From the IMG/VR virus record IMGVR_UViG_3300045988_154892: a stretch of DNA of 64,000 bases, one strand, 5' to 3'. The notes beneath the pieces are model-generated. The model saw nothing but the letters and a program-made list of their open reading frames with translations, was not told the origin of the DNA and did no database searches. Position 1 is the stretch's first letter. Each line of letters starts with the position of its first letter. The DNA is from a virus. The translations under genes and the position numbers were made by a program. Below are positions 548 through 57,079 of the stretch, piece after piece.

Positions 548-745
548 ATGGTGAATAATATGAGAGCTTTTGGAACAGAAGAATATGGAAATAGTGATGG
601 ATTTAAAATTATTTGTAATAAATGTGGGAGAGAAGCACGAATTATTCCAACACATCATTATAAGGAGGTTGGAAAGCTTGAAAAGATAACCCTTGAATTT
701 AGATGTATTTGTGGAAACAAATACGGTGCAACTATTCATGATTAA
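548..745 (+). CDS. small zinc-ribbon-like protein
   Basis: Two Cys pairs (CNKC ... CICG); weak SD GAAAGG. Confidence 0.45.
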   Translation: MVNNMRAFGTEEYGNSDGFKIICNKCGREARIIPTHHYKEVGKLEKITLEFRCICGNKYGATIHD

Positions 746-777
746 AATCGCATTTCAAATATAGAAAGGAAACAAAT

Positions 778-1005
778 ATGACAGAAAAGATATATTATGT
801 GATTCAAGATAAAAAAGGAGAATTCTTTACACCAGATAATTTATCTGGTGGATATCCGTATTTTACTGATGATTTTGAATTTTGTGAGAGATATAATTCT
901 GAAGACTCTGCCAATAACTTTTTAAATAGTAAATACGTGACAGAACAATTTACAAAAGAATTTATTGGAGCTCGAGTAAGAAAAGTAGAAATAAGATTAG
1001 TATGA
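778..1005 (+). CDS. hypothetical protein
   Basis: ORF behind AAAGGA SD-like box. Confidence 0.5.
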   Translation: MTEKIYYVIQDKKGEFFTPDNLSGGYPYFTDDFEFCERYNSEDSANNFLNSKYVTEQFTKEFIGARVRKVEIRLV

Positions 1006-1025
1006 AACGTAGAGAGGAAATAATT

Positions 1026-1298
1026 ATGGGTAGATATAAGAACTGGAAATGTTATTCATACAGATTTACCAATAAGAAAAGAGATTATAGCTATGAAGAA
1101 TTAAAACCATATTTCTATATTGATGGTAGCGAAGTTATTTATTGTAAAAAAGATTTTGGAGAATGTAAAGCTGGGAATTATTATTTAGTTTTCGATGGAA
1201 AGTGGTATGGTGGATGGAAAGAAAAAGAAAGCGGATTTATCGTTAATGATTGGACACCATTCAAGGATTGGTTAGATAAAGAATATATGAAGGAGTAA
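1026..1298 (+). CDS. hypothetical protein
   Basis: Start moved from 1002, whose ATG lies inside an ATGAAACG junction motif, to ATG 1026 behind GAGAGGA. Confidence 0.5.
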   Translation: MGRYKNWKCYSYRFTNKKRDYSYEELKPYFYIDGSEVIYCKKDFGECKAGNYYLVFDGKWYGGWKEKESGFIVNDWTPFKDWLDKEYMKE

Positions 1299-1303
1299 AA
1301 ACA

Positions 1304-1447
1304 ATGTCTAAAGGCAAACCGAGATGGAAAGATCTTCCTTTTTATGAAAGATTTGCAAAACAGTTAAAGCAGCATGGAGTATCAGAAGAAATGTGTGAAC
1401 ACATTAGGGAAAGAGGAAGAGAAAAGGAAAACAAAGACAACAAATGA
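1304..1447 (+). CDS. hypothetical basic 47-aa protein
   Basis: ATG 8 nt after AAGGAG; its TGA stop is the first half of the junction motif. Confidence 0.45.
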   Translation: MSKGKPRWKDLPFYERFAKQLKQHGVSEEMCEHIRERGREKENKDNK

Positions 1448-1460
1448 AACGTAGATTTCA
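1445..1460 (+). repeat. junction motif TGAAA-N6-TTTCA
   Basis: TGAAACGTAGATTTCA; AGGAG 6 nt downstream. Confidence 0.7.
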
Positions 1461-1478
1461 AAATTAGGAGTGATAGAA

Positions 1479-1817
1479 ATGAAATATATAGAAACCGAAA
1501 ATCTCCTTTATGAAATAGATTGGGGAAATGGAAGAAAATTCAAATGCAATTCATATTGGAATGATGATACTTCTTTTGCATTGGACATTGGTGATGGAGA
1601 GTTGATTGATAAAGATGGAAATTCATATTTTATCCACTGTGAATACAATTGTGATAATGGAATATGGTATTATATTTTTGAAATATGGTTTGAAAATGAT
1701 AGTTGTAATATTTATGACATTCCGGAGACTAACAGAAGCGAATATCTTTCGGAAACAGAAATTGAAGATCTACGAGGAATTATTTATAACTTATGCAAGG
1801 ATAAAATAAATCTATGA
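1479..1817 (+). CDS. hypothetical protein
   Basis: ATG 8 nt after AGGAG; leader nearly identical to that of 2076. Confidence 0.55.
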   Translation: MKYIETENLLYEIDWGNGRKFKCNSYWNDDTSFALDIGDGELIDKDGNSYFIHCEYNCDNGIWYYIFEIWFENDSCNIYDIPETNRSEYLSETEIEDLRGIIYNLCKDKINL

Positions 1818-1844
1818 AAACAAATTTATGTGGAGGAAAGCAAT

Positions 1845-2039
1845 ATGAAAGTATTTTATTTAGCACAAGAGAATTTCGGATGTGTTGTCTATGCAGATAA
1901 TGAAAACGATGCATTTGAAAAAATGAAATGTCAAAGAAAAGAATTATTAGAAACTTTAGGATTGCCATTAGATATTACACGATGGGGAATTGAGGAATTT
2001 GCACCGGACTTATATGATGGTGTCTTATGTTTTTATTAG
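1845..2039 (+). CDS. hypothetical protein
   Basis: ATG behind GTGGAGG. Confidence 0.5.
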   Translation: MKVFYLAQENFGCVVYADNENDAFEKMKCQRKELLETLGLPLDITRWGIEEFAPDLYDGVLCFY

Positions 2040-2075
2040 AATGAAATAGAAAATTCAAAATTAGGAGTGATGATA

Positions 2076-2381: not shown

Positions 2382-2410
2382 TGAAACGGAAAGTATCAGG
2401 AGGAAAACAT

Positions 2411-2712: not shown

Positions 2713-2713
2713 T

Positions 2714-2729
2714 TGAAACGGAAATTTCA
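2714..2729 (+). repeat. junction motif TGAAA-N6-TTTCA (orphan copy)
   Basis: TGAAACGGAAATTTCA followed by AGAGAGAATAAATATT but no start at SD distance. Confidence 0.6.
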
Positions 2730-3013: not shown

Positions 3014-3015
3014 TT

Positions 3016-3183: not shown

Positions 3184-3186
3184 AAT

Positions 3187-3683: not shown

Positions 3684-4151
3684 ATGATTAAATTTATAGA
3701 AAAAGAAAGATATTATGATGATAGTCCATATACAGGAAGTTGCTATTATTACCCTACATATATGGTAAAAGATGGAGAAGAATTCTTTGTATTCAATCGA
3801 AGAGAGCCTGACGATGAATGGAAGATAAAAGAGGACAAAATAAGAAAGAATCAGTTGATAGAAAACGAAGGGAAATATTTTAAGTTTAACGGATTTTATA
3901 ATAATCCACTAGAAATGTTGAAGGAGATTATTGAAAGAAAACATCATTTTACAACACCAAAGGACATGTACTATGGTAATTTAGATATACATAGATATAT
4001 AGATTTCCATGGTAATAGAAATGAAGTTAGTGCAGCTTTCCATTATAGAATTTATGATATAGAGTTAGCATGTATAATTCAAAAAGTTGTCAAGCTAATC
4101 AATAGTGAAGATTGGAACATGGCAAAAGCAATATTGAATAAAAAACAATGA
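3684..4151 (+). CDS. hypothetical protein
   Basis: ATG behind TTGGAGG; start moved from 3648. Confidence 0.55.
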   Translation: MIKFIEKERYYDDSPYTGSCYYYPTYMVKDGEEFFVFNRREPDDEWKIKEDKIRKNQLIENEGKYFKFNGFYNNPLEMLKEIIERKHHFTTPKDMYYGNLDIHRYIDFHGNRNEVSAAFHYRIYDIELACIIQKVVKLINSEDWNMAKAILNKKQ

Positions 4152-4164
4152 AAAGCACATTTCA
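4149..4164 (+). repeat. junction motif TGAAA-N6-TTTCA (orphan copy)
   Basis: TGAAAAGCACATTTCA plus AAGGAGG 4164-4170; nearest ATG is 14 nt further on. Confidence 0.6.
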
Positions 4165-4289: not shown

Positions 4290-4318
4290 TTGACAAATGG
4301 ATATACTTTGTATATACT
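4290..4318 (+). promoter_or_regulatory. sigma-70-type promoter of mazEF with GTATATAC operators
   Basis: TTGACA, 17 nt, TATACT; palindrome GTATATAC at 4310-4317 and 4339-4346. Confidence 0.6.
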
Positions 4319-4986: not shown

Positions 4987-5010
4987 AAATGTAAATGAAT
5001 ATGCGAAACG

Positions 5011-5046
5011 AAGGAATCATACAGAATAGTGTATGGTTCCTTTTTT
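5011..5046 (+). terminator. rho-independent terminator
   Basis: 12-bp stem AAGGAATCATAC / GTATGGTTCCTT (one G-U pair), 8-nt loop, T6. Confidence 0.8.
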
Positions 5047-5065: not shown

Positions 5066-5081
5066 TGAAACAGAGATTTCA
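5066..5081 (+). repeat. junction motif TGAAA-N6-TTTCA
   Basis: TGAAACAGAGATTTCA; GGGAG 4 nt downstream. Confidence 0.7.
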
Positions 5082-5098: not shown

Positions 5099-5386
5099 AT
5101 GAAAACAAATGAAAGAAAATATCTGGAGATCAGCACAGCACATTTAAAACAGAAAACACTTGAAGGACTCAATGCCATGGAACCACCATATACTTATGAA
5201 TATGAAGAAGGTATTTTTATGAGTGTACCAGCTCAAAAAGAAACTAATATCAGTGATATGCCAAAAGATTTACGGATCTTACTTCAGTATGCATGGATAA
5301 ATGGAATTGACTTGATCCGAATGGATAGAGACGCAGATGTTATTGATGACATTCCGGTGTATGACTGGGAAAAAAGAAGCGAATGA
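5099..5386 (+). CDS. hypothetical protein (coding signal may continue in +1 frame to about 5670)
   Basis: ATG behind GGGAGA; see frame-break finding. Confidence 0.5.
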   Translation: MKTNERKYLEISTAHLKQKTLEGLNAMEPPYTYEYEEGIFMSVPAQKETNISDMPKDLRILLQYAWINGIDLIRMDRDADVIDDIPVYDWEKRSE

Positions 5387-8627: not shown

Positions 8628-8891
8628 ATGGTAAACAAATATGATAACATACAGGACACAACAGATAAAATCTATGAATTTTGCAAAGACTACATTTTTG
8701 AGCATGGTTATGCTCCGTCTTATGACGAGATTGGAAAAGGTGTTGGAATTAAAAGCAAAGGCACTATCCATTGTAATATGCATAAATTATTGAAAGAAGG
8801 TAGAATTGCAACAGATTTAAAAGAACTTGCGTCCAGAGGGTTCCGTATTTCTGGTTATATTATCATGCCGATAGGTGTAGATAAAAGATGA
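8628..8891 (+). CDS. LexA N-terminal DNA-binding-domain-like protein without a peptidase domain
   Basis: HGYAPSYDEIGKGVGIKSKGTIHCNMHKLLKEGRI parallels the B. subtilis LexA wHTH GYPPSVREIGEAVGL..STVHGHLARLETKGLI (from memory); only 87 aa. Confidence 0.65.
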   Translation: MVNKYDNIQDTTDKIYEFCKDYIFEHGYAPSYDEIGKGVGIKSKGTIHCNMHKLLKEGRIATDLKELASRGFRISGYIIMPIGVDKR

Positions 8892-9552: not shown

Positions 9553-10557
9553 ATGAATGAAAGAGTACAGACAGGCTTAGAGGAAGAAAAACTTAAATAT
9601 AAACGAAAAATCGAAAACATTATGAAAGGGAAGTCTAAGAATCTACAAGACTTCCTTTTATATATGCATGATTTATCAGAAAAGACAAAATATGTTTACA
9701 TGTGTGATGTATTAAAATTTCTAAAGTTCACAGGAAAAGAAAAAGAAGAAGATCTTGAACTGAGAGATTTTGTATCCTATATGGCAAAAATACAAGATAA
9801 AGACAATGGATTAGAAACAGTTTCTTCTTATCAAATTGCAGTTTATTCTGCACTAAAACTTTTTTCAAAATGTATGTTTGCATATAAAATTTTTTCGAAA
9901 AATTATATGGAAGAAATTGCGAAGCCAAAAAAGAGAGAGCAACAGAGAACAATAGAAAGAAGAGAAAAGAGTTATTTGACTCCAGAAGAAACACAAACGT
10001 ATCTTTATAATGTAGACCATAAGCTAACAGGGAAAACAAGGAAACCATCAGCTATTTGGTCACAAAGAGATATTGCAGTTATAAAACTTTTTCTTTCTAC
10101 AGGCGTGCGTTGTGCAGCGTTATCTAATATGGATATAGAAAACTTAAATATGGATAAAGGAACTTTGATTGTAACAGACAAGGGGAAAAAAGTTCATACA
10201 TTCATTTTAATTCCGAAAGTTTTAGATGAATTGCAGAAATGGTTAGCATACAGAGATCAACTTGTAACAGTACGCGATACACCAGCTCTATTTCTTGGGA
10301 AAACCGGAAAGAGATTGTCAACAAGTGCAATTTCGGATATTACAAAAAAATATGCTTGTAATATAAAAGGAAAAACAATTAGTCCACATAAACTAAGGGC
10401 AACATATGGTACTACATTGTACAACGCAACGGGTGATATTGTGCTTGTACAGAAAAATTTACATCATGCATCAATTAATACAACGCTGTTATATGTAAGA
10501 GGAATGGAAGAAAAAGCACAAAAAGAATCTGTAGAAATCATGAAAAATATTATCTAA
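9553..10557 (+). CDS. tyrosine recombinase / phage integrase family
   Basis: C-terminal catalytic region HKLRATYGTTLY ... LHHASINTTLLYV (R..H-x-x-R..H..Y pattern); ATG behind TTGGAGG. Confidence 0.85.
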   Translation: MNERVQTGLEEEKLKYKRKIENIMKGKSKNLQDFLLYMHDLSEKTKYVYMCDVLKFLKFTGKEKEEDLELRDFVSYMAKIQDKDNGLETVSSYQIAVYSALKLFSKCMFAYKIFSKNYMEEIAKPKKREQQRTIERREKSYLTPEETQTYLYNVDHKLTGKTRKPSAIWSQRDIAVIKLFLSTGVRCAALSNMDIENLNMDKGTLIVTDKGKKVHTFILIPKVLDELQKWLAYRDQLVTVRDTPALFLGKTGKRLSTSAISDITKKYACNIKGKTISPHKLRATYGTTLYNATGDIVLVQKNLHHASINTTLLYVRGMEEKAQKESVEIMKNII

Positions 10558-12675: not shown

Positions 12676-13281
12676 ATGTTAGATGCAATAGAGTTTAAAG
12701 CCGATAGGTTTAAAAAAAGAAGATAATTATAATCTGATTGAATTTACCGAAAACACAGTTATTTTGTGTAGTGATTACAAACTTATGGATACACTAACGA
12801 AAGAAATAATCAATACAGTGAATGGTAAAGCAGAATATAACGATTATTACTGTGATGATGAAGACGAGGAGGAAAGCAAAATTAGATTTATGTTTTGGTT
12901 TACAGCGAATAATTGATATAAATGGACAGAAGATTACAATTGGTCTGGAGCCAGCAATCATTTACAAAGCAAATAAACCAGAAGACATATGGCTTTTTTA
13001 CTTAGCAAGGATGTGATGAGATTGAATCATTTCCTAAATATGAAGAATATATTTACCCTATGTTGATATTTAAAGGTAGTAAAAGTACATGGAACGATGG
13101 CAAGGATGCTGTGTACCAAACTATATGTAATGGAAGATATGGTTGTTATAATGGAAAATGGATTGATTTTGCCGAAAAATTATTTTACGAAGAAACAGCG
13201 AAAAGATTTTTCGATCAGATGAATATAAATTCTAATGAAACCAAGTTTTCATGTGGAGTGGAAAGGAGAATATATAAATGA
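12676..13281 (+). pseudogene. frame-interrupted ORF chain (up to three +1 breaks) or several start-less short ORFs
   Basis: ATG 12676 behind AGAGGTG stops at 12724; protein-like coding continues in +1 frame to 12914, again +1 to 13014, again +1 to 13281. Confidence 0.4.
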
Positions 13282-13484
13282 GAATTATTAATGCATATGG
13301 ATATGATGTGACAGGCTCAGAAGATATTTTAAATGAAATAGAGACTGATTTAAAAAATAAACAAGTGACGATTAATTGGAGCAATTTTAAGAATGGAGAT
13401 GTTCTTTGGAATCATAATGGAAATACAAAATTCTTTGTTGCAATAGATCATGAAAATAAAATGGTTGTATTGGATGAGAAGTAG
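13278..13484 (+). CDS. hypothetical protein
   Basis: ATG behind AAAGGAGAATA; ATGA overlap. Confidence 0.5.
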   Translation: MRIINAYGYDVTGSEDILNEIETDLKNKQVTINWSNFKNGDVLWNHNGNTKFFVAIDHENKMVVLDEK

Positions 13485-13523
13485 CATAAGAAATCTAAGT
13501 TTCATGAAGATGGAGAATATTAT

Positions 13524-13715
13524 ATGGAGAAAAGAGTATATATTCCATTATGGTTAGCCTTAAAACAGGCGCGTGAAGCCTATGGCTATCCGAAAGACTA
13601 CGGCATCTGTGCTTGCTATGATGTAGAAAACATGGGTTGGTGCAAAGACGAAGTAACACGTTGGTATCACTTTACTGCTGTAGACGGTACGCCAGCCTAC
13701 ACATTAAAACGATGA
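13524..13715 (+). CDS. hypothetical protein
   Basis: ATG behind ATGGAGAATA. Confidence 0.5.
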   Translation: MEKRVYIPLWLALKQAREAYGYPKDYGICACYDVENMGWCKDEVTRWYHFTAVDGTPAYTLKR

Positions 13716-16273: not shown

Positions 16274-16289
16274 TGAAAAATTGCTTTCA
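16274..16289 (+). repeat. junction motif TGAAA-N6-TTTCA
   Basis: TGAAAAATTGCTTTCA; AAAGGA SD downstream. Confidence 0.65.
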
Positions 16290-16309
16290 ATGTAAAGGAT
16301 GCGAATAAT

Positions 16310-16537
16310 ATGACATATGAAGAAACACAAAAAATCAAACATTTACGAGAAGTGACTTCTGTTATGGTTGAGGAATCATCAAATGGAATTGAATGTACTA
16401 AAAATAGATTTGGAAACAGAACTATGGATGGCTGTAAAAATGTAACTTTTGAAAAGATTGAGTTATCAAAAATTGACAATGATATTCCTCAGATAAGAAG
16501 AGAATATTATGGGAAAAATCTATGGGTAATGTTATGA
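16310..16537 (+). CDS. hypothetical protein
   Basis: ATG behind AAAGGATG. Confidence 0.45.
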   Translation: MTYEETQKIKHLREVTSVMVEESSNGIECTKNRFGNRTMDGCKNVTFEKIELSKIDNDIPQIRREYYGKNLWVML

Positions 16538-16574
16538 GATTAAGTTGTTTTTAATATAGAATGGAGATGATTAT

Positions 16575-16838
16575 ATGAAAAGAATTAAAATGAAAAATAA
16601 TACAACAAAATTTGTGTGGGATGGAGATAACTGCGTAGATAAGTACACAGAGCTTATAGAACAGTATTATTACGACTCAAAAGAAGAAAGAATGGAGCAT
16701 AAAAAAGAAATGGAATCAAATGGATGGAATGATTCTGGTCAGGTTATGGAAATGGTAAGTGGTTCTTTAATGCCAGGGGCGAAAAATCCTCCTGTACATG
16801 TCTGGTTTGGAAGTTATTATAAAACAATTAGAGAGTAG
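16575..16838 (+). CDS. hypothetical protein
   Basis: ATG behind ATGGAGATGATTA, the same leader as 15468. Confidence 0.5.
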   Translation: MKRIKMKNNTTKFVWDGDNCVDKYTELIEQYYYDSKEERMEHKKEMESNGWNDSGQVMEMVSGSLMPGAKNPPVHVWFGSYYKTIRE

Positions 16839-16868
16839 ATGAAAGATTTCACTAAGGAGGTGTAGATT

Positions 16869-17078: not shown

Positions 17079-17354
17079 ATGTGGAAAAGGAATTTAGATA
17101 TATTTCCTGGTGAATGGTTTGGAACAGAACACGAGGAAGAATTAAAAAAAGAATTGGAAATTGGAGATTATGCAAAAGTAATTGTTGATTCACAATTCTA
17201 CGATAAATGTTTAGATGGCAATAAATGCCAAAGACTTTTTGGCATGGTTGGAAAAGTAATTGAAATTGACACATCAGATGAATGGTCATATCAATTATGT
17301 TTTGAAAATGGAATGACTAACTGGTTTAAACGATATATTTTAGAAAAACGATGA
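17079..17354 (+). CDS. hypothetical protein
   Basis: ATG behind AAGAGGT; start moved from 17055. Confidence 0.5.
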   Translation: MWKRNLDIFPGEWFGTEHEEELKKELEIGDYAKVIVDSQFYDKCLDGNKCQRLFGMVGKVIEIDTSDEWSYQLCFENGMTNWFKRYILEKR

Positions 17355-17367
17355 AAGATTGTTTTCA
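17352..17367 (+). repeat. junction motif TGAAA-N6-TTTCA
   Basis: TGAAAGATTGTTTTCA; its TGA is the upstream stop codon. Confidence 0.7.
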
Positions 17368-18742: not shown

Positions 18743-18758
18743 TGAAACAGACATTTCA
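18743..18758 (+). repeat. junction motif TGAAA-N6-TTTCA
   Basis: TGAAACAGACATTTCA; AAGGAGAG 3 nt downstream. Confidence 0.7.
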
Positions 18759-18771: not shown

Positions 18772-18936
18772 ATGGAAAACTATATGAATGCTCCTATTCA
18801 GTTAGAGTGGACAGATAAAGATGTATTAGAAGATTTCGAGAAATATCATGATAAGAAAGCAGTTTCTAGAAGATTTTGCATTCCCGTATCTCAAGTAACA
18901 GAAATATTAAAACGAAACGGTGTTAAAGAAAAATGA
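18772..18936 (+). CDS. small protein with possible HTH
   Basis: ATG behind AAGGAGAG; start moved from 18742 (motif ATG); RRFCIPVSQVTEILKRNG looks HTH-like. Confidence 0.5.
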   Translation: MENYMNAPIQLEWTDKDVLEDFEKYHDKKAVSRRFCIPVSQVTEILKRNGVKEK

Positions 18937-19522: not shown

Positions 19523-19624
19523 TAAAGACATATTTATATAAATAAAGATAAATTGTGATATAATAGCAAAAATAATAAAGATATATTTATATTAAGCATT
19601 GACATATTAAAGATATGTTGATAT
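19523..19624. repeat. four TAAAGA-type direct repeats (operator candidates)
   Basis: TAAAGACATATTTATAT 19523, TAAAGATAAATTGTGATAT 19543, TAAAGATATATTTATAT 19576, TAAAGATATGTTGATAT 19608. Confidence 0.6.
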
Positions 19625-19627
19625 AAT
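19599..19627 (+). promoter_or_regulatory. consensus sigma-70 promoter facing the mazF-like gene
   Basis: TTGACA, 17 nt, TATAAT with TG extension; a second TGaTATAAT at 19556-19564. Confidence 0.7.
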
Positions 19628-19670: not shown

Positions 19671-20042
19671 ATGGATGTACATTGTGGCGAAATTAAACGT
19701 GGTGAAATCTATTGGGTAGATTTCGGGAAAACGAAAGGATCTGAACAGGGCGGAAAACGCCCAGCACTTGTTGTTCAAAATAACATTGGGAATAAACATT
19801 CTTCAACAACCATAGTCGTGACAATCACATCAAAAAGGAAGCCCAATCTTCCTACTCATGTCATTTTGGAAAAAGATGCGTTGAATGGATTAAGTTCCGA
19901 TTCGTTAGTAACATGTGAACAAATTAAAACAATAGATAAAGCTAGATTGTTGGATAAAATCGGAGAGATTAGTCCCAAAAAGCAAAAAGAAGTGAACAGA
20001 GCAATGCAGATTAGTTTGCAGACATTATTAATGGAGGGATGA
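19671..20042 (+). CDS. mazF: MazF/EndoA (PemK) family toxin without an upstream MazE
   Basis: GEIYWVDFGKTKGSEQGGKRPALVVQNNIGNKHSSTTIVVTITS...LPTHV and C-terminal AMQISL closely parallel B. subtilis EndoA (from memory). Confidence 0.85.
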   Translation: MDVHCGEIKRGEIYWVDFGKTKGSEQGGKRPALVVQNNIGNKHSSTTIVVTITSKRKPNLPTHVILEKDALNGLSSDSLVTCEQIKTIDKARLLDKIGEISPKKQKEVNRAMQISLQTLLMEG

Positions 20043-20436: not shown

Positions 20437-20497
20437 ATGTTCGAAAACATATTGACAAGAACATTAGTTCGATGTATTATAATTTTGTCGAACAAAA
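20437..20497 (+). promoter_or_regulatory. consensus promoter embedded in three palindromic operators, the middle one a Gram-positive SOS (Cheo) box
   Basis: TTGACA 20452-20457, 17 nt, TATTAT 20475-20480. Palindromes: ATGTTCGAAAACAT 20437-20450; AGAACATTAGTTCG 20458-20471 (GAAC-N4-GTTC); TTTTGTCGAACAAAA 20483-20497. Confidence 0.6.
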
Positions 20498-24417: not shown

Positions 24418-24539
24418 GGTCATGCGATTTAACATGCCTAAAAATGAGGTCGGAAATGGTTCCCGACGCACTCTGTAAAGAGTACCTGAGATGATGGTTA
24501 CGCCGCCCATCCATTTTTGGCATTTCAAATCGCATGACT
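24418..24539 (+). ncRNA. tRNA-like cloverleaf RNA closed by a long helix (Y-RNA-like?)
   Basis: P1 24419-24430/24527-24538; P2 24434-24446/24512-24523; three 5-bp hairpins 24449-24467, 24470-24483 (GUAA loop), 24493-24511; locally GC-richer, no plausible ORF. Confidence 0.55.
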
Positions 24540-24555: not shown

Positions 24556-24571
24556 TGAAAGGCACATTTCA
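24556..24571 (+). repeat. junction motif TGAAA-N6-TTTCA
   Basis: TGAAAGGCACATTTCA upstream of the clpP SD. Confidence 0.65.
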
Positions 24572-24595: not shown

Positions 24596-25150
24596 ATGAG
24601 TTCAAGAGACAATACATACACAAACACAAGAACATTTTTTCTGTCAGATGATGTTGACAATGAATCGGTTGGGAAACTGATTTGGGGGATGCTTTATCAG
24701 ATCAATGAAGACAATGAAAAAGATGAAAAAGAAAAGGATTACAAGCGCGATCCAATTAAACTGTACATTAATTCCTGCGGTGGAACTATTTATGATATGT
24801 GGGCGCTGATTGATGTTATTCAGAATAGCAAAACGCCGATTCACACATATTGTATGGGATATGCCATGAGTGCAGCATTTGATATCTTCTTAGCAGGTCA
24901 TAAAAGGTATTGTTACAAGCATTCTACTTTCATGTATCATCAGATACATTGTAAGAGAAGTGGAAAGTATCAAGATCTGGTTGAAGATAGAATTGAAATG
25001 GACAATCTCAATAAGCAGATTGAGGAATATGTTTTGGAAAGAACAAAGCTGACGAAAGAAGATATTACTGACATTCGTGAAAAGAAGAAGGACTTCTATA
25101 TTCATTCGGATAAGGCGATTGAGTACGGTATCGTGGATGAAGTACTGTAA
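24596..25150 (+). CDS. clpP: ClpP-family (S14) serine protease
   Basis: INSCGGTIYDMWALIDVI, GYAMSAAF (Ser), FMYHQIH (His). Confidence 0.8.
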   Translation: MSSRDNTYTNTRTFFLSDDVDNESVGKLIWGMLYQINEDNEKDEKEKDYKRDPIKLYINSCGGTIYDMWALIDVIQNSKTPIHTYCMGYAMSAAFDIFLAGHKRYCYKHSTFMYHQIHCKRSGKYQDLVEDRIEMDNLNKQIEEYVLERTKLTKEDITDIREKKKDFYIHSDKAIEYGIVDEVL

Positions 25151-31060: not shown

Positions 31061-31061
31061 T

Positions 31062-32534
31062 ATGAGAAACATTTCTTTTATGCTGATGGCAGACACATAT
31101 AAAAATACAAATCCAGATGCTCTTCCGGCAGGTCTTACAAAATTAACTTCCTATATTACTCCAAGAAAGTCAATGTTTAAAAATCTGAATGAAGTAGTGT
31201 TCTTTGGATTACAGTGCTTTATTAAGGAATATATGATTGAATTAGCAAACGAAACGTTCTTCAAAAGACCAAAAGAAGAGGTTGTTGCAGAATATAAAGA
31301 ATATCTGGATAATCAGATCGGTTCTCAGAGTTATGATCTTGGACGTATCGAAAAATTATGGGATCTGCAGTATTTACCTGTAGAGATCAAAGCTCTTCCA
31401 GAAGGATCTGTTGTAACAATGGGAGTCCCGTGTATCGAGATGAGTAACGCACATCCGGATTTCGCATGGACGGTACAATGGCTGGAATGCATTATGCAGT
31501 CTTTTATTTTTGGGACATGCAACTGGGCAACTGTAGGTCATAAATATAGAACACTCGCAAACGAGTTTTATGAAAAAACAACCGATAATAAAAATCCAGC
31601 AATGGCAATGGCAGATTTTGGATTCAGAGGGCTTGGCATCGAGAACGGTATCCACGCCAGCTCTTCATGGCTTCTGTCATTTGACAAAACCTCTACAATT
31701 CCAGCAACCCAGTATATTGATAAGATGTACAATGCAGATTGCGTCAAAAATCATATTGGAATCGGAGCAGTTAGCCTGGAACATGCAACAGTATGCAGTA
31801 ATTTGGCAGTATGTGAAACCGAGGAGAATTTATTAAAAAGACTGTTGACAGATACGTACAAGAATACTTCTTTCAGCTATGTCTCTGACACTTTCGATTA
31901 TTGGAAACTTATTGAAGAAGCGCTTCCAAAACTCAAGAAAGAAATTGAGGAGCATAATGGTAAATTCCTTGTACGCCCTGATAGTGGAGATATTGTTGAA
32001 ATTTCAGTAAAAACAGTTCAGAAACTGTACGAGATTTTTGGCGGAAGTGTAAATTCCAAAGGGTATAAAGAGCTGAATCCAAAGATTGGTATTATTTATG
32101 GAGATGGCTGTCAGTACAGTAAAATCAAAGAAATTTGGACACAGCTTGAAAAACTTGGATTTGCTGCAGATACGATCCTTTTTGGAGTAGGTGCATTCTC
32201 ATTTTCAGCAATGTGTACTCCGGAAGATGGAATGGTTTGCCTAACTAGAGACACATTTGGATTTGCTATGAAAAGTACCTATTGTGTAATTGATGGAAAA
32301 GAATATACCATTCAGAAAAATCCAAAAACGGATAGAAATAATTTAAAGAAATCACATAAAGGTCTTTGCCGTGTTGTGAAAGAAGGTAATAATTTTGTAT
32401 GCCATGATGGATATACAGAAGATACGATTCCAGAAGAAAATGAATTAAAACTTATCTTTAAAAATGGAGAATTAGTAAAAGAGCAGACCTTTGGAGAAAT
32501 CAGAGAAAGACTGAATGGAGAAAATCATGATTGA
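31062..32534 (+). CDS. nadV: nicotinamide phosphoribosyltransferase-like enzyme (NadV/Nampt family; Namat candidate)
   Basis: ADTYK, DFGFRGLG, LVRPDSGD, IIYGDG. Confidence 0.8.
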   Translation: MRNISFMLMADTYKNTNPDALPAGLTKLTSYITPRKSMFKNLNEVVFFGLQCFIKEYMIELANETFFKRPKEEVVAEYKEYLDNQIGSQSYDLGRIEKLWDLQYLPVEIKALPEGSVVTMGVPCIEMSNAHPDFAWTVQWLECIMQSFIFGTCNWATVGHKYRTLANEFYEKTTDNKNPAMAMADFGFRGLGIENGIHASSSWLLSFDKTSTIPATQYIDKMYNADCVKNHIGIGAVSLEHATVCSNLAVCETEENLLKRLLTDTYKNTSFSYVSDTFDYWKLIEEALPKLKKEIEEHNGKFLVRPDSGDIVEISVKTVQKLYEIFGGSVNSKGYKELNPKIGIIYGDGCQYSKIKEIWTQLEKLGFAADTILFGVGAFSFSAMCTPEDGMVCLTRDTFGFAMKSTYCVIDGKEYTIQKNPKTDRNNLKKSHKGLCRVVKEGNNFVCHDGYTEDTIPEENELKLIFKNGELVKEQTFGEIRERLNGENHD

Positions 32535-36561: not shown

Positions 36562-36577
36562 TGAAATCGAAATTTCA
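36562..36577 (+). repeat. junction motif TGAAA-N6-TTTCA
   Basis: TGAAATCGAAATTTCA; GAGGAG downstream. Confidence 0.7.
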
Positions 36578-36591: not shown

Positions 36592-36873
36592 ATGCAAAAA
36601 GAATTTAAAAACTTATTTTGCGATTTTACAGATAGCGAATTAGAGAAATGTTATTGGAGTCGAATTAGAATTTTAAATAAAACCAATGAGGATTATGAGC
36701 CTTATAAAGATATGGTAAAAAAATGTCAAAAACTTATTGGATATGAATATAATCCCAAAATGGCAGATGCAATTTGCGAGGGACATATGTTTAACGAAAT
36801 TGCTAAACGATTTTTTAAAATTGTAAACATGAGTGATGATTTATGTGAAGTGTACGGGATTAAAAAGAGATAG
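36592..36873 (+). CDS. hypothetical protein
   Basis: ATG behind GTGAGGA. Confidence 0.5.
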   Translation: MQKEFKNLFCDFTDSELEKCYWSRIRILNKTNEDYEPYKDMVKKCQKLIGYEYNPKMADAICEGHMFNEIAKRFFKIVNMSDDLCEVYGIKKR

Positions 36874-39384: not shown

Positions 39385-39400
39385 TGAAATGTTGTTTTCA
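39385..39400 (+). repeat. junction motif TGAAA-N6-TTTCA
   Basis: TGAAATGTTGTTTTCA; CAGGAGG 3 nt downstream. Confidence 0.7.
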
Positions 39401-39413: not shown

Positions 39414-40055
39414 ATGGATAAATATTTGAGTGTGATTACAAACTTTGGCTGCCACTATGCGTGTCCATATTGTATTGTCAAGAATAATAATATGCAGATT
39501 CCTAAAAGTACATTGGAAGGGATTGATTCCTTAGCAGATGAGATTAAGAGGAATAATTGCAATTGGGTTTCTTTGTCGGGTGGCGGAGATCCAATTTGGG
39601 ATTATGAAAATCATAAAGATTGGTATAACAAATTTTTTGATATTGTTAACGCACTAAGGGTAAAAATCGAATTACATACAAGTATTCCTAATCTAAGTAA
39701 TGTTCCATATAACCGCTTCAACAGAGTAGTGTATCATCTGCATAGTCTTAAACAGCTCCGTTCCATCAAAAGAATTGGCAATGAAATTATTAGAGTTGTC
39801 TTTGTGGTAACAAAAGATTTTACGGAAGATCTAATCAATAAAATTGCTGTTTACTGTTATAATTCAGATAATATTGACGAGTTAAGTTTTCGCCAGATGG
39901 TAGATAATCATTATCAGGAGACAGATTACTGCAGAGATTATCTAAGGTCGGGACATCAGAAATTATGGTGGTATATTGAGCAGAGCGACTACAATCTTTA
40001 TTATTGTGAAAATAAAGTATATACGGAATATAGAAAAATTGGAGAAAATATATGA
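39414..40055 (+). CDS. radical SAM enzyme (small)
   Basis: CHYACPYC (CxxxCxxC) and SLSGGGDP; start moved from 39372 to the ATG behind the SD. Confidence 0.65.
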   Translation: MDKYLSVITNFGCHYACPYCIVKNNNMQIPKSTLEGIDSLADEIKRNNCNWVSLSGGGDPIWDYENHKDWYNKFFDIVNALRVKIELHTSIPNLSNVPYNRFNRVVYHLHSLKQLRSIKRIGNEIIRVVFVVTKDFTEDLINKIAVYCYNSDNIDELSFRQMVDNHYQETDYCRDYLRSGHQKLWWYIEQSDYNLYYCENKVYTEYRKIGENI

Positions 40056-40705: not shown

Positions 40706-41812
40706 GTGTCAGAAAAAGCTTATAAGTATAGAATCTATCCAAATAAAAAACAGCAAGAATTAATCCAGAAAACATTCGGATGCTGCAGATTTGTATATAA
40801 CTATTTCTTAGATAAAAGAAAATCAGAATATGAGAAAGATAAAACATCTTTATCTTACAACGATACAAGTAAACTGCTTACGAAATTAAAGCAAGAATTA
40901 AGCTGGTTAAAAGAGCCAGACAAAGATTCTCTACAGAAAACGCTAAAAGATTTAGATATGGCTTACCAAAAGTTTTTCAAAGAGTATGCTGGTTATCCAA
41001 AGTTCAAGAGTAAAAAGAACAGATACAAGTCATATAGAACCAGTTGTACAAACAACAACATTTCTTTTCAGAACAAACATATTAAGTTGCCAAAGCTTGG
41101 TTTGATTAAAATCCGAGATAGACAAATTACGCAAGGAAGAATCTTAAACGCCACTATCTCACAGGAACCAAATGGACACTACTATTGTTCTTTATGTTGT
41201 ACTGATGTAGATTTTCCACAATATCAGAAAACCAATCAGAATATTGGGATTGACTTAGGTTTAGTAGATTTTGCAATTACGTCTGATGGAATAAAAATTG
41301 AAAATCCTCAGTTTTATGAAAAATCAGAACAGAAACTTGCTAGATTACAGAGAGAACTTTCGAGAAAAACAATCGGTGGTTCCAACTGGAATAAAGTACG
41401 AATCAAAGTTGCGAATCTACAGAAACACGTAGCTAATCAACGCAAGGATTTCTTACAAAAGCTTACTACTCGGATTATAAAACAGAATGACATTATTTGT
41501 ATTGAGGATTTAGATGTGAAATCTATGAAAGAAACAGATACTTCCATTCGTAATAAACGGGTAGGAGATGTATCTTGGTCAGAATTTCGTAGAATGCTTA
41601 CATATAAATCTCAGTGGTATGGAAAAACATTATCTGTTGTAGACAGATATTTCTCATCATCTCAGATTTGTCATTGTTGCGGTTATAGAGACGGTAAGAA
41701 AACAGAAGATATTCGTGAGTGGACATGTTCTGAATGTGGAACTATTCATGACAGAGATATAAACGCTGCGATTAATATTCTTAATGAAGGATTAAGGCTT
41801 TTAAATGTCTAA
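40706..41812 (+). CDS. tnpB: TnpB (IS605 OrfB) RNA-guided nuclease
   Basis: KAYKYRIYPNKKQ, IGIDLGL, CIEDL, zinc finger CHCCG...CSECG, DRDINAAINI. Confidence 0.9.
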   Translation: MSEKAYKYRIYPNKKQQELIQKTFGCCRFVYNYFLDKRKSEYEKDKTSLSYNDTSKLLTKLKQELSWLKEPDKDSLQKTLKDLDMAYQKFFKEYAGYPKFKSKKNRYKSYRTSCTNNNISFQNKHIKLPKLGLIKIRDRQITQGRILNATISQEPNGHYYCSLCCTDVDFPQYQKTNQNIGIDLGLVDFAITSDGIKIENPQFYEKSEQKLARLQRELSRKTIGGSNWNKVRIKVANLQKHVANQRKDFLQKLTTRIIKQNDIICIEDLDVKSMKETDTSIRNKRVGDVSWSEFRRMLTYKSQWYGKTLSVVDRYFSSSQICHCCGYRDGKKTEDIREWTCSECGTIHDRDINAAINILNEGLRLLNV

Positions 41813-43290: not shown

Positions 43291-44214
43291 AAAAATTTAT
43301 TCATTATCAAAAGGATTTTAGAAGATATGAATTTATCAGACGAAGCGTTTACCGTATGGTGTGGATTACGAAATATTTTACAAAAAGATAGAGAAAAATA
43401 TTTTGTATCTTACAGTTCTATTGGCTTTGAAATATTTGACCGTCAAGTTAATAGATACGAGACAAATGCAATTAAAAAAGGATTTAATGAACTTACAAAA
43501 AGAGAATATATCAATGTAATTACATCGTGCAATACAACAGATTTTATAATTGACTTATCTGCATTGTTTTATAATGGGAACGAATTTTTCTCGGATATTA
43601 CAAGAGAAGAAATGCATAAGATTATGAATATTGATAGCAAATGCGATAAATATAAATTATTAAGGTATTTTGCATGTCAAGTAGGGACATTTAACCGTAG
43701 TGATGATATGAGAAGATATAAAGGAAAAATTGGAGGAATAAGTATAGATTATTTCGAAAAATTAATTCCGATTAATAAATCTACGGTCATTTCTTTCAAT
43801 CGCATCTTAGAGCAAAATGAATTGCTTTTCGTAATTAGGCATAAAGACTTTTATCAAAGTAAATTTCAAAATGGTTCCAGTGAGATCAGGGAAATCCCAA
43901 ATACATATAGTCGTTGGAAAGATAGAAAACTCGCCCAGGAATTTGCAGAAGAGCAACATGGATATAAATATGAAGTAACAGAAAAAGGTTTACGCACTGA
44001 CGCAGCGAATAAAAATCGTTCACTAGGTCAGAAGCTTAACAACTACATTTGCAATCATATTGAATATGATGATGCTACAGTCGAAGAAATGCGAGAATAT
44101 GCAGAAAAGAAAAACACAAGACTGAAGAATAAATATGAAGACGAGATATCTAAAGGTTATCATCCTGAAGAGCCGGTGTATATTGACATGACTGTGTTTA
44201 GAGCAGTCGGATGA
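43288..44214 (+). CDS. hypothetical protein (replication-organiser-like? unproven)
   Basis: 308-aa ORF after an AT-rich repeat/hairpin region; no motif recognised. Confidence 0.45.
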   Translation: MKNLFIIKRILEDMNLSDEAFTVWCGLRNILQKDREKYFVSYSSIGFEIFDRQVNRYETNAIKKGFNELTKREYINVITSCNTTDFIIDLSALFYNGNEFFSDITREEMHKIMNIDSKCDKYKLLRYFACQVGTFNRSDDMRRYKGKIGGISIDYFEKLIPINKSTVISFNRILEQNELLFVIRHKDFYQSKFQNGSSEIREIPNTYSRWKDRKLAQEFAEEQHGYKYEVTEKGLRTDAANKNRSLGQKLNNYICNHIEYDDATVEEMREYAEKKNTRLKNKYEDEISKGYHPEEPVYIDMTVFRAVG

Positions 44215-44227
44215 AATATGTCTTTCA
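44212..44227 (+). repeat. junction motif TGAAA-N6-TTTCA
   Basis: TGAAATATGTCTTTCA; its TGA is the upstream stop codon. Confidence 0.7.
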
Positions 44228-44260
44228 GAGGAGAGAATAAATATTCGAGGAGGTGATAAT

Positions 44261-48471: not shown

Positions 48472-48487
48472 TGAAAGCGATATTTCG
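48472..48487 (+). repeat. junction motif TGAAA-N6-TTTCG (one mismatch)
   Basis: TGAAAGCGATATTTCG; TAGGAGAATA downstream. Confidence 0.55.
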
Positions 48488-48597
48488 TTAGGAGAATAAA
48501 TATTGTGTATGGTCAGGGAAATCGTATGAAAGAATATTATAAAAATATACCAAAAGCAAAATTGATGAGAAAATTATGGATGGAAGTGTGAAAGAAT

Positions 48598-51045: not shown

Positions 51046-51075
51046 CTAAGAAATTGCACTTTCATAGGAGAAAAT

Positions 51076-51297
51076 ATGGTCAAAGAATATTGTGATATTT
51101 GTGGTAAAAAAGCGAAAACCACGAAGTACGTACTACCTTTTCGGTACAAAGAAAAAGCGAATGATAAATTTAACAATACAATCTTGTGTTTTGATGTGGT
51201 AAAACCAACGGAAGTAGATTTATGTACAAATTGTGCTTGGGATATAAATTCGTTAATATGTTATGATATTAAACAGGTCTTAGATAGAAATAAATAA
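51076..51297 (+). CDS. hypothetical zinc-ribbon-like protein
   Basis: ATG behind TAGGAGAA; CDIC ... CTNC. Confidence 0.5.
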   Translation: MVKEYCDICGKKAKTTKYVLPFRYKEKANDKFNNTILCFDVVKPTEVDLCTNCAWDINSLICYDIKQVLDRNK

Positions 51298-54334: not shown

Positions 54335-54718
54335 TTGACGTTTGAAGAAAGAATACGTGAATATTGTCTACGATCAGACATAGTGTATGAAAGAATCCTT
54401 TCATCTCCATGTGAAAAAGACTTGTATGTTTTGTATCCATCAGAATTAGCAAATGAACAGATCCTCCAAGACAATATTCCAAAGATGTTAAAGGTTATAA
54501 AGGAATATATCAGTGAGTTGGAATTATGTGCATATTGTATGCGTAAAGTTGATAATCTTTATTTTGATTCTCAAAAAACAGTTATAATAAATGAAGCACA
54601 TAACCGTCAAGAAAAAGCAGATGAGCTGGCAGAAATTATGAATGAAGGAATTAGTCCTTATGCTTGGTATTATTATGATACTGCGGAAGGATATGTTGTG
54701 TATTTAGACAATATTTAA
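54335..54718 (+). CDS. hypothetical protein
   Basis: TTG behind AAGGAGTG. Confidence 0.5.
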   Translation: MTFEERIREYCLRSDIVYERILSSPCEKDLYVLYPSELANEQILQDNIPKMLKVIKEYISELELCAYCMRKVDNLYFDSQKTVIINEAHNRQEKADELAEIMNEGISPYAWYYYDTAEGYVVYLDNI

Positions 54719-54732
54719 GGAGGGAACTAACA

Positions 54733-54889
54733 ATGGCAGAAGCAACAAGATTATGTCCTGTTTGTAGGACAATCATGAAATCAGCAGCTTACAAAGTTGG
54801 AAAATAATATTTTTACACCTGATGGTGTTGGTATTATTGGAAAACTTTTAGTATGTCCGAAATGTGGGAATTTAGCAGTGGTGAAATAA
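54733..54889 (+). pseudogene. small zinc-ribbon gene whose two CxxC halves lie in different frames (+1 break near 54802-54807)
   Basis: ATG behind AAGGAGGG gives MAEATRLCPVCRT...KVGK-TAA. The +1 frame continues NIFTPDGVGIIGKLLVCPKCGNLAVVK. Confidence 0.45.
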
Positions 54890-54892
54890 ATT

Positions 54893-55309
54893 ATGGAGAA
54901 AGTAATTAGATATATATGCGATTACTGCGGTGAATTGTTTAGTTTAGAAGAATGGTGTTTGGAACATGAAGAGTCGCACAGAAAATCAGAAAAAGCTAAT
55001 GAGATGCTTAGTGGCGGTAAAACATTAAAAGAGATTAATAACGAATGTCATCTTTGGTCTGAAGTTCCAGATTATTTAAAGAATGTGACAAAAGATAATT
55101 GCTTTGTCGTTAGTTACTGGCAATGTTGTGACAAGCCAGCTTATAGAATTGTTTCTATTACTCATAAAGGACGATTAGAACTTTGGGGTTGTGGTTCTTG
55201 GAATGGTTATTACGGTGGTGAGTTTAAGATTGGCAATGATAATCTTAAAGATCCAAGACCTAAAGAAGAATTGTTTATTGATCCGAGATATGAAGAATTA
55301 TATTGGTAG
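54893..55309 (+). CDS. hypothetical protein with C2H2-like N-terminus
   Basis: CDYCG...LEHEESH. Confidence 0.5.
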   Translation: MEKVIRYICDYCGELFSLEEWCLEHEESHRKSEKANEMLSGGKTLKEINNECHLWSEVPDYLKNVTKDNCFVVSYWQCCDKPAYRIVSITHKGRLELWGCGSWNGYYGGEFKIGNDNLKDPRPKEELFIDPRYEELYW

Positions 55310-55349
55310 GGTAACTTTGTAATAGAGAATAATTAAAGGAGGAAAACGA

Positions 55350-56474
55350 TTGAGAAGTAGTATTTTTATTCCTAAAACAATTAATGTTGGTTATCAGAAT
55401 CGTTCAGGAACATATACAGGAAAGCTTGCTTATGTAATTTACTATGACGAAAAGGGTAAGTTGCGAAAAGAGACTTCATGGAATGGTTGGCGAGATAAGG
55501 ATATTCCAAATAACGAATATGATAATATTCCAACCGAAGGATTTGTGCTTAATAAAAAAGCAGGTGATTATTCTACGGATTGGGATCATAGACATGCATA
55601 TTGTAGAGTATACGATCCACGAGGATTTGAATTTGAGATTACCATTGAGAATTTATTATACATTCTTGAAAATGCAAATTGCATCAGAGGTAAAGGACTT
55701 GAAGGAGAATTTGTATATGGATGGGATGGAAAAGATTTAGTTCTTATGCCAGTAGAATCACCTGATTATAAAGAGATTGGTGAGTTTAATAAGATTATCC
55801 ATAATAATGAATGTGTTAAGGCAAAAGACCTTATTATAGGTGCTACATATTTAACTAAAGATAATGAAAATTGGATTTATATGGGTAAATTTGATGTCTA
55901 TGATAGATATAAAAATTGGAAAAATAAAGGTAAACATTTTTGGTTTTGGAAAGATAGTTATTTTGAGCATTATAGGTCGATGCCAAAGAATAAATTTATC
56001 AAATGTATTGATGATAAGTGCAATGAAAAGTATGCAGACATTTTTGATAAATTGGAAGGAGAATCTGAGTATTCTCCATATGATAGTAGCAAAGACGAAT
56101 ATAAATACTTTACACTTGATGAATTTAAAAAAGACGCTTACTGGGAAAGAATTCGTTTTATAAGCGAATATTATAGTGGGAATAAATATGTATTTGAGAC
56201 TTATAAACGGGATGATAATTTATATATTATCTATAAAATACAAATGGAATATATGCATTACGGTCCATATGAAGAACGTGTTAAAGTAACTGACATATTT
56301 CCTACCACATCTAAAATGGTTAAGTCAAACCGATATCCATATAATGATAAAGAAGAAAAACATATGAATCCTGTTACTATTGAACAGATTTTTGAAACAA
56401 TGAAGCCAATGTATATTCAGAAACATTTAGCAAACGGCAGAGAATATGAAAGGAGTACGAAATCAAATGAGTAA
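55350..56474 (+). CDS. conserved hypothetical protein
   Basis: TTG behind AAAGGAGGAAAA; 374 aa. Confidence 0.55.
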   Translation: MRSSIFIPKTINVGYQNRSGTYTGKLAYVIYYDEKGKLRKETSWNGWRDKDIPNNEYDNIPTEGFVLNKKAGDYSTDWDHRHAYCRVYDPRGFEFEITIENLLYILENANCIRGKGLEGEFVYGWDGKDLVLMPVESPDYKEIGEFNKIIHNNECVKAKDLIIGATYLTKDNENWIYMGKFDVYDRYKNWKNKGKHFWFWKDSYFEHYRSMPKNKFIKCIDDKCNEKYADIFDKLEGESEYSPYDSSKDEYKYFTLDEFKKDAYWERIRFISEYYSGNKYVFETYKRDDNLYIIYKIQMEYMHYGPYEERVKVTDIFPTTSKMVKSNRYPYNDKEEKHMNPVTIEQIFETMKPMYIQKHLANGREYERSTKSNE

Positions 56475-56874
56475 GAATGATGATAGAATTTTAGAATTAA
56501 AGAAACAGATTGAGGATAAGAGAAAAGCTATCTCTGAGAAGAAGATTAGATTTGTTCCTGAGACAAATTGTGTTCTCAATATGGATGGAATAACTATCAA
56601 CCTTAATGTATGTTCAGATGATGCATTAGTGTTGTTACTTATTAGACTTAATTCATATCTTATGTCAGCAGTTGACCTTGGAATGCCTGATTTTGAGATT
56701 TCGGGCTACAGTGTAACGGATTGGATTAAGGACATTAAGAGTAAATTAGAAGTGTCTAGTCTAAAGAAAGAGGAAACAGATTTGAAGAAGATGGAGAGTA
56801 AACTGGACAAACTGCTATCTAATGACAAGAAAACTGAGATTGAAATTGATGAGATTGCAAGTCTATTGAGGTAG
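56467..56874 (+). CDS. hypothetical protein
   Basis: ATG behind AAAGGAGTA. Confidence 0.5.
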   Translation: MSKNDDRILELKKQIEDKRKAISEKKIRFVPETNCVLNMDGITINLNVCSDDALVLLLIRLNSYLMSAVDLGMPDFEISGYSVTDWIKDIKSKLEVSSLKKEETDLKKMESKLDKLLSNDKKTEIEIDEIASLLR

Positions 56875-56891
56875 TATTGGAGAATAAATCA

Positions 56892-57056
56892 ATGGAAGAA
56901 TATATTAAGAGAATTGAACAAATTGCAGCAAGATGCACAGAAAGTCAGTCAGATGGATATTCACAGATTATGAGAATCTGTGATGCCATGAGAGAAGAAC
57001 AGAGATATTGCTTAGGATATGTTTCTGAAAAATGGGATCAAATCCCCACAATTTGA
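56892..57056 (+). CDS. hypothetical 54-aa protein
   Basis: ATG behind TTGGAGAATA. Confidence 0.4.
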   Translation: MEEYIKRIEQIAARCTESQSDGYSQIMRICDAMREEQRYCLGYVSEKWDQIPTI

Positions 57057-57063
57057 TTAGTAA

Positions 57064-57079
57064 TGAAATTTTTCTTTCA
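57064..57079 (+). repeat. junction motif TGAAA-N6-TTTCA
   Basis: TGAAATTTTTCTTTCA; AAGGAGAG downstream. Confidence 0.65.

Follow-up and report, generated by a model that had tools for sequence, protein, structure and literature searches.

How large temperate phages coordinate hundreds of genes to which no function has been assigned can be approached from few sides, dispersed intergenic repeats being one of them. Palindromic sites for a dimeric phage regulator are known: the phiC31 repressor binds conserved inverted repeats (CIRs), present in about 18 intergenic copies in the early region, and the 434-type operators have the form ACAA-N6-TTGT. In the promoter-early stem-loop (PeSL) cassettes of T4-type phages, small early genes are flanked, at modular shuffling junctions, by short intergenic repeats in which a sigma-70 promoter is combined with a stable stem-loop. 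Here we describe a palindrome, TGAAA-N6-TTTCA, that is repeated through a 64,000-nt stretch of virus DNA (IMG/VR record IMGVR_UViG_3300045988_154892; the whole stretch is referred to as the window) and that was brought to attention by an earlier note made from the sequence alone. The site is under selection, is confined to one phage lineage and behaves unlike a base-paired stem. Our preferred but tentative reading is that it may serve as a recognition site on double-stranded DNA for a homodimer, most likely phage-encoded, at cistron boundaries in the early, accessory arm of SPbeta-like temperate phages, and that its function would most likely be transcriptional.

The arms placed around N6 are a feature that the palindrome shares with the 434 operator. 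However, the CIR and 434 sites have other sequences, belong to phages of other hosts and are associated with promoters. The motif resembles the PeSL repeats in its placement, but has neither a sigma-70 promoter nor a stable stem-loop. The boxes of cre/CcpA, CodY, ComK, parS, TnrA, PlcR and TyrR appear to have the wrong spacing or the wrong arm orientation. Searches for the motif strings in the searchable literature returned nothing relevant and Rfam has no family for the motif, and the earlier statement that no described element matches it holds within that literature. The motif appears to be undescribed so far; as a kind, it would belong with the dispersed operators of phages.

There are, however, close functional analogues. 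One is formed by the ESAS/SAS elements of Cluster K mycobacteriophages, inverted repeats that stand directly upstream of the ribosome-binding site (RBS), are confined to the non-structural arm and have arms that do not covary; a DNA-binding protein was favoured by their authors, since departures within the arms do not support RNA pairing (PMC3203893), and the elements were later seen to contain SigA-like promoters (PMC11373665). Both ESAS and our motif are dispersed, lie upstream of the RBS in a subset of genes, keep to the non-structural arm, have a consensus that differs by subcluster or clade and lack covariation between the arms. They differ in scale and make-up. ESAS extends over ~46-50 bp, with imperfect repeats of 15-17 bp, a variable spacer, a SigA-like promoter and a 13-bp SAS that includes the Shine–Dalgarno (SD) sequence, whereas the motif is 16-18 bp long with a fixed 6-bp spacer, has no promoter hexamers and no conserved SAS, and occurs in another host phylum and another phage lineage. 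The stoperators of L5 and of further phages in Cluster A are a second analogue: tens of intergenic sites at which bound repressor blocks transcription elongation (PMC9283540; PMC6550527). Like the motif, they are many sharply conserved sites in the short intergenic gaps of a temperate phage, spread across operons, but they are asymmetric, 13 bp long, read by a monomer, oriented with transcription and present in both arms, in contrast to a palindrome found largely in one arm.

A dispersed operator is already described in SPbeta itself. This is SPBRE, the operator of the master repressor MrpR/YopR/SroF (PMC10516654), an asymmetric site of ~24 bp that is read by a monomer (bioRxiv 10.1101/2025.11.27.690993). 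As derived here from seven SPbeta promoter regions, SPBRE reads aCAAAtAcAAAAAATATGTATAT. It belongs to the same phage lineage as the motif, is repeated intergenically in the early arm and sometimes adjoins an SD (yopM, yopV). However, the sites cannot be equated: SPBRE serves a monomeric repressor with a recombinase fold at about ten promoters and its sequence is unrelated to that of the palindrome, and SPbeta carries SPBRE and at least 32 copies of its own form of the palindrome, TAAAA-N6-TTTTA, at different places, with both elements coexisting upstream of aimR, yorE and yosX.

A sharp palindrome between closely packed genes

The window has ~32% G+C, a strong positive GC skew and nearly all of its genes on the + strand. 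TGAAA-N6-TTTCA occurs in it 14 times against an expectation of 0.73, and none of 100 dinucleotide shuffles reached this number, the shuffle maximum being 3; chance or base composition is thereby ruled out as the origin of the motif. The thirteen copies initially listed are confirmed (twelve starts are exact and the thirteenth, at 48472, is a TTTCG variant, as had been said), although two exact copies, at 13236 and 54388, had been overlooked. The spacer is indeed fixed, with enrichment at 6 nt only in a scan from 0 to 12 nt, and 0 or 1 copy at the remaining lengths. The reversed arrangement TTTCA-Nx-TGAAA is not enriched in the window, and no 5-mer inverted repeat around N6 other than TGAAA/TTTCA has more than three copies there. 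Copies with one mismatch in an arm number 14 against 11.5 expected, which is the chance level for this class; therefore the motif is sharp. Three of the proposed degenerate copies (742, 2042 and 51049) are one-mismatch forms in the right context, and that at 16840 is a deletion derivative, a decayed site; the one at 3644 is weak, with two mismatches.

The consensus is (a)T[G/A]AAA-N6-TTT[C/T]A(t), 16-18 bp long with 10-12 fixed bases. The base at -1 is A in 13 of the 14 exact window copies. Over 58 copies, the share with A at -1 is 76%, and 47% have T at +1. The spacers of the window and of the related phage MT835469, taken together, have 45% G+C, compared with 32% for the window overall, and they avoid A at the first base and T at the last. 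About 15-19 of the roughly 130 gene junctions in the window have the motif. Along the early arm it occurs at about one copy per 2.5-4.5 kb.

Thirteen of the 14 exact copies are intergenic, between a stop codon and the next SD. In four cases (1445, 4149, 17352 and 44212) the TGA of the motif is itself the stop codon of the upstream gene, as first proposed. Elsewhere the stop mostly lies 0-13 nt upstream and the SD 0-5 nt downstream; with stop and SD flanking it so closely, the element fills what is otherwise a minimal intergenic gap. The claim that every copy lies 1-12 nt before a GGAG box is true of most, though not of 54388, nor of 2714, from which the next start is separated by 77 nt that include a sigma-70-like promoter; at 4149 there is an AGGAGG box without a start codon at normal spacing. 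The copy at 54388, inside a gene, is probably the one chance or coding-constrained copy, one such copy being what chance predicts. It had also been suggested that the flanking A creates ATG codons that mislead ORF callers. This applies only at 18742: the open reading frames (ORFs) at 1002 and 2381 have no connection with the motif, and at 39372 the ATG is not formed by it.

Outside the 16-18 bp of the element, no position from -50 to +40 is conserved among the copies, and -10-like hexamers are scattered. There are therefore no promoter hexamers, and the element is not part of a promoter. A sigma-70-type promoter is rejected for want of conserved -35 and -10 hexamers and because the SD is too close for a transcription start. 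A sigma-54-like -24/-12 layout matches at 7 of 10 bases, but its key GG and GC are absent and transcription would start after the SD. Nor is the motif an intrinsic terminator, as its arms are A/T-rich, with no G+C-rich stem and no following T-run.

Lineage-specific forms in related phages

At the DNA level the phage collection contains a single relative, MT835469, a 176-kb phage from human faeces without annotation, whose proteins in common with the window are mostly 25-50% identical in amino-acid sequence. Conservation of the motif in related phages is borne out there: MT835469 has 25 exact copies of TGAAA-N6-TTTCA, all between 11 and 103 kb; all but one lie in the plus-strand arm of positive GC skew, the exception being 10 kb past that arm, and the remainder of the opposite arm is free of them. 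The same genome has eight copies of TAAAA..TTTCA against 0.68 expected, most of them directly before an SD. In IMG/VR, the window's own clade is represented by dozens of contigs, 100-216 kb long, which carry many more copies, and a more distant clade of ~150-kb contigs has AGAAA-N6-TTTCN in place of the TGAAA form. In the Clostridioides phage pCD1602_4 (132 kb, 26% G+C) the TGAAA form is absent, and there are 21 copies of TAAAA-N6-TTTTA; 17 of these are in the plus-strand arm, only the 6-nt spacer is enriched and many copies adjoin an SD. The changes in the arms from clade to clade keep positions 2 and 15 complementary.

SPbeta (NC_001884) uses the same TAAAA-N6-TTTTA form. Its count of at least 32 comes from three regions (L081, L082 and L083), with five copies at 1-50 kb (0.63 expected), 14 at 62-100 kb (0.74 expected) and 13 at 100-134 kb (0.44 expected), and there are no G/C variants among the SPbeta copies. 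Nearly all are intergenic, some being entered in the record as generic stem-loops only. The TAA of the motif is the upstream stop codon at nine genes (yorT, mtbP, yorZ, yosC, yosF, yosR, yoqG, yoqS and yoqY). Other settings vary: copies stand before an SD (yoqD, yoqE, yoqU, yoqY), before a terminator (yoqS), in a 5' untranslated region (UTR; yosX) and between a terminator and an SPBRE/promoter module (aimR, yorE). This variety of intergenic settings fits a DNA site better than an RNA element of the ribosome-binding site.

The motif is thus kept in phages of Bacillus, Clostridioides and human-gut Firmicutes between which BLAST otherwise detects few shared proteins. MT835469 and pCD1602_4 have only 18 such proteins in common, none of them an evident regulator, and the terminase of MT835469 is about 34% identical to those of SPbeta-like phages. 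The motif is not enriched in SPP1, Bacillus phage BCP78 or Thomasclavelia phage TR-TP1, and SPP1 has no copy at all, which makes the element specific to the phage lineage and not host-borne.

Probable half-sites rather than a stem

The earlier note had left a choice between an RNA hairpin and a DNA operator for a dimeric regulator. A hairpin is disfavoured on several counts. A stem of 5 bp contributes only -0.5 to -0.9 kcal/mol, and in SPbeta and pCD1602_4 its pairs would all be A-U. When five motif contexts were folded as RNA, the z-scores against shuffles ranged from -0.5 to +0.4, no better than the shuffles, and in three of the five the hairpin was absent from the minimum-energy fold.

Covariation of the stem was examined within one genome, on 43 copies in MT835469 that have G or A at the second position of the arm and C or T opposite it. 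Each of the four combinations is found in proper context: G-C 25 times, G.U six, A-U four and A.C eight. The mismatch A.C is as common as the wobble G.U, and covariation is not above that of shuffles, 139 of 500 shuffles reaching the observed value. A larger non-redundant set, pooled from the window, MT835469 and the IMG/VR loci, gives G-C 76, A-C 11, G-T 9 and A-T 2, which is the distribution expected for positions that vary independently. Tolerating a mid-stem mismatch in the same way as a wobble is unlike a functional hairpin and like two half-sites that are read separately on duplex DNA.

The layout of the site points the same way. The half-site centres are 11 bp apart, about one helical turn, and the motif has the features of an operator for a dimeric helix–turn–helix (HTH) protein of the 434/Cro kind: identical half-sites, a spacer of fixed length and free sequence, and independent degeneracy of the half-sites. 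A DNA operator for a dimeric regulator, the second of the two early proposals, fits the invariant arms, the strict 6-bp spacer and the independence of the half-sites. The preferences for A at -1 and T at +1, which continue the palindrome outward in part, are also in keeping with a homodimer.

A proposed operator or roadblock at cassette boundaries

In the mechanism that we propose, a sequence-specific homodimer would read the two half-sites of 5-6 bp on one face of the helix, and the bound dimer would act as an operator, or as a roadblock on RNA polymerase entering the downstream cassette. Early genes that carry the motif could in this way be silenced or timed together, much as might be expected from the dispersed operators and stoperators of other temperate phages. 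We infer both the dimer and its effect on transcription, and control of the early-arm gene cassettes by an operator or roadblock is our best guess.

Several observations weigh against this reading. The element abuts the SD, at 0-5 nt, in most copies of the window and MT835469, which would suit a role at the level of RNA, and it stays next to the SD even where the upstream gap is long, as at 5066, after a terminator, and at 24556, after a skipping-rope RNA. The stronger preference for A at -1 than for T at +1 would likewise suit an RNA-level role. At the orthologous site of the copy at 39385, the distal arm has decayed and the arm next to the SD has been kept. The outermost position is asymmetric in the ~150-kb clade, with AGAAA opposite TTTC followed by A, T or C. 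The SPbeta copies that stand between terminator and promoter, at aimR and yorE, are in odd places for a roadblock. Finally, scans of all window ORFs against Pfam and PHROGs found no binder, and no regulator beyond three candidates, a LexA-type winged-helix protein, MazE and a 54-aa protein.

The candidates fare poorly. The LexA-type protein has no orthologue in MT835469 and was rejected. The 54-aa ORF, which has a weak signal for an HTH-like C-terminus (KKAVSRRFCIPVSQVTEILKRNG) and is 89-100% identical across 22 IMG/VR contigs, was also set aside: its sole Pfam match, CENP-B_N, is weak (E = 0.04), and SPbeta and pCD1602_4 lack a homologue. The tyrosine-recombinase-family protein of the window is Xer-like, its PDB matches all being Xer-type recombinases; as an MrpR-like repressor it was rejected, as it keeps its catalytic residues, does not match YopR and has no orthologue in MT835469. 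A small protein common to MT835469 and pCD1602_4 was suspected of being HU-like and proved to be a fragment of a tape measure. Since the window is about one third of its genome, the binding factor may well lie elsewhere.

The closeness to the SD, the asymmetric flanks, the free outer base of the ~150-kb clade and the decay of the distal arm together keep an RNA-level role as a live rival, although we think it unlikely. The motif would then be a small hairpin, or a bipartite single-stranded site near the SD, bound by a phage RNA-binding protein or nuclease that controls translation or cuts the mRNA at cistron junctions. All intergenic copies in the window would suit this in being transcribed, co-oriented and either intercistronic or in a 5' UTR, as is the yosX copy of SPbeta, and the window encodes enzymes that act on RNA (two MazF proteins, an RNA ligase and Tpt1). 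Besides the weak stem, the unremarkable folds and the lack of covariation described above, an invariant stem with a free loop is the reverse of what is seen in known hairpin operators, and some copies have no downstream SD, standing before terminators or upstream of promoters.

Recombination at the motif is a second rival. The palindrome could be a site like a tyrosine-recombinase core, or a nuclease target, that promotes the exchange of cassettes between co-infecting relatives, and several features of these genomes speak for it. The sole megablast match between the window and MT835469 is a two-gene cassette, 16274-16848, that starts at one motif copy and ends in another. Five unrelated upstream sequences adjoin the same motif copy, that before the 54-aa ORF, in different relatives. 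The same motif and spacer occur beside different upstream flanks in 245 pairs (spacer identical in 213) and beside different downstream flanks in 111 pairs (spacer identical in 106). In close relatives, 10 of 12 motif junctions have breakpoints, against 35 of 74 junctions of other kinds (Fisher p = 0.028). An arrangement of inverted arms on either side of a 6-bp spacer is within the layout of tyrosine-recombinase core sites (range 6-8 bp), and genes of this recombinase family occur in the window, SPbeta (yomM, yopP), MT835469 and pCD1602_4.

However, the enrichment is modest and the breakpoints are no proof of a recombinational role: only 13 of 92 distinct breakpoints are at motifs, and mosaic junctions without a motif are common. 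Core sites of tyrosine recombinases have arms of ~9-13 bp, for which the 5-6 bp conserved here are short; spacers differ between copies; and the window recombinase has no detectable orthologue in MT835469, in spite of the identical motif there. Junctions at the edges of the motif are in any case to be expected, since only those that fall in the few free intergenic bases survive selection. Motif junctions are favoured places of exchange, yet exchange is independent of the motif. We read exchange at the motif as a by-product of short shared homology and of selection for intact cassettes, the shared motif marking, in passing, the junctions at which related phages exchange cassettes; a dedicated recombination site is improbable.

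It is very doubtful that the palindrome is an A-tract/T-tract element read by a host nucleoid-associated protein or transcription factor, or a curvature boundary element, for although the core common to all clades is AAA-N6-TTT, with only the flanking bases changing, and the TAAAA form is common to the distant hosts Bacillus and Clostridioides, SPP1 also infects B. subtilis and has no copy, the motif is sharp, with G or A at position 2 fixed per lineage and no G/C variants in SPbeta, its spacer length is strict, and its copies are largely confined to one genome arm.

Returning to the operator reading, the presence of at least 32 copies in SPbeta puts both binder and function within reach of standard B. 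subtilis genetics. An operator would define a new regulon of early and anti-defence cassettes, and a recombination site would explain the cassette-wise mosaicism of SPbeta-like phages. A broader notion, to which we would give only a small chance, is that SPbeta-like phages have, besides SPBRE, a second genome-wide DNA signal, a cassette-boundary palindrome through which a putative dimeric factor would insulate or co-regulate the early-arm cassettes, or which would support integron-like or dif-like exchange between co-infecting phages.

Individual copies and other features of the window

The copies of the motif and the other features to which coordinates can be given are collected in Table 1.

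Table 1. Copies of the palindrome, its variants and other features along the window
Feature	Position	Form	Context
Exact copy	1445..1460	TGAAACGTAGATTTCA	TGA is stop of ORF 1304-1447; SD 5 nt downstream; start 1479
Exact copy	2714..2729		1 nt past stop of ORF 2560-2712; no adjoining SD; sigma-70-like promoter 2781 before next start 2807
Exact copy	4149..4164		TGA is stop of ORF 3684-4151; AGGAGG directly after
Exact copy	5066..5081		22 nt past terminator-like hairpin; 2 nt before SD of gene 5099-5386
Exact copy	13236..13251		Intergenic, SD after; upstream of gene 13278-13484
Exact copy	16274..16289		5' edge of two-gene cassette, 91% identical to MT835469
Exact copy	17352..17367		TGA is stop of ORF 17079-17354
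Exact copy	18743..18758		Directly past stop codon; 13 nt before start of 54-aa ORF
Exact copy	24556..24571		36 nt past skipping-rope RNA; 12 nt before SD of ClpP-like gene
Exact copy	36562..36577		Between stop codon 36560 and SD of gene 36592-36873; kept in close relatives
Exact copy	39385..39400		Upstream of gene 39414-40055; left arm degenerate in close relatives (TAGAA or CTAAA)
Exact copy	44212..44227		TGA is stop of ORF 43327-44214
Exact copy	54388..54403		Inside ORF 54335-54718; no SD after; conserved in relatives as coding sequence
Exact copy	57064..57079		Upstream of gene 57102-57296
Variant	48472..48487	TGAAAGCGATATTTCG	SD after; contig L010 has TTTCA at same place
One-mismatch copy	742..757	TTAAA..TTTCA	Upstream of gene 778-1005
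One-mismatch copy	2042..2057	TGAAA..ATTCA	Upstream of gene 2076-2381
One-mismatch copy	13489..13504	AGAAA..TTTCA	Upstream of gene 13524-13715
One-mismatch copy	51049..51064	AGAAA..TTTCA	Upstream of gene 51076-51297
Deletion derivative	16840..16851	TGAAAGATTTCA	4 nt missing relative to full copy TGAAAGATTGTTTTCA at orthologous place in MT835469 (24321); 3' edge of shared cassette
SD-plus-spacer string	2739-2753, 44231-44245, 48492-48504, 57087-57101	GAGAGAATAAATATT	1-9 nt downstream of four copies
LexA-type winged-helix protein	8628-8888		Candidate binder
MazE			Candidate from Pfam/PHROGs scans
54-aa ORF	18772-18936		HTH-like C-terminus, weak signal
Tyrosine-recombinase-family gene	9553-10557		Catalytic residues intact
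Skipping-rope RNA	24439-24519 (+)	Rfam RF02924, 72 bits, full length	36 nt upstream of copy 24556
ClpP-like gene	24596-25150		Downstream of copy 24556
TnpB / IS605 OrfB-type genes	25439-26584, 40706-41812	Cas12f-like TNB domain	Accessory arm
Near-consensus sigma-70-type promoters	4290-4318, 19599-19627, 20452-20480
Strong terminator-like hairpin	5010-5043
Dense accessory/anti-defence-type load	19671-20042, 30975-32534, 58114-59283, 60277-62904, others

The string GAGAGAATAAATATT, made up of an SD and its spacer, recurs after four of the copies and suggests a subfamily of duplicated or exchanged junctions. Two of the near-consensus promoters, at 19599 and 20452, open a 5.8-kb stretch without copies of the motif.

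The accessory genes of the window include two for MazF and one for MazE, and those for NAMPT, NAD synthase, a macro-domain protein, RNA ligase, Tpt1 and a PNK-like kinase; there are further genes for two GmrSD-like proteins, two C5 methyltransferases, Lar, a vWA-TerF protein and a P-type ATPase. In the ~150-kb IMG/VR clade, pairs of an AT-rich palindrome, ACTATATATRGT, ~30 nt apart, lie just upstream of AGAAA-N6-TTTCN (about 3360-3430 in contig L015; also in L013, L016, L017, L020 and L021), and may be an operator/promoter module of that clade.

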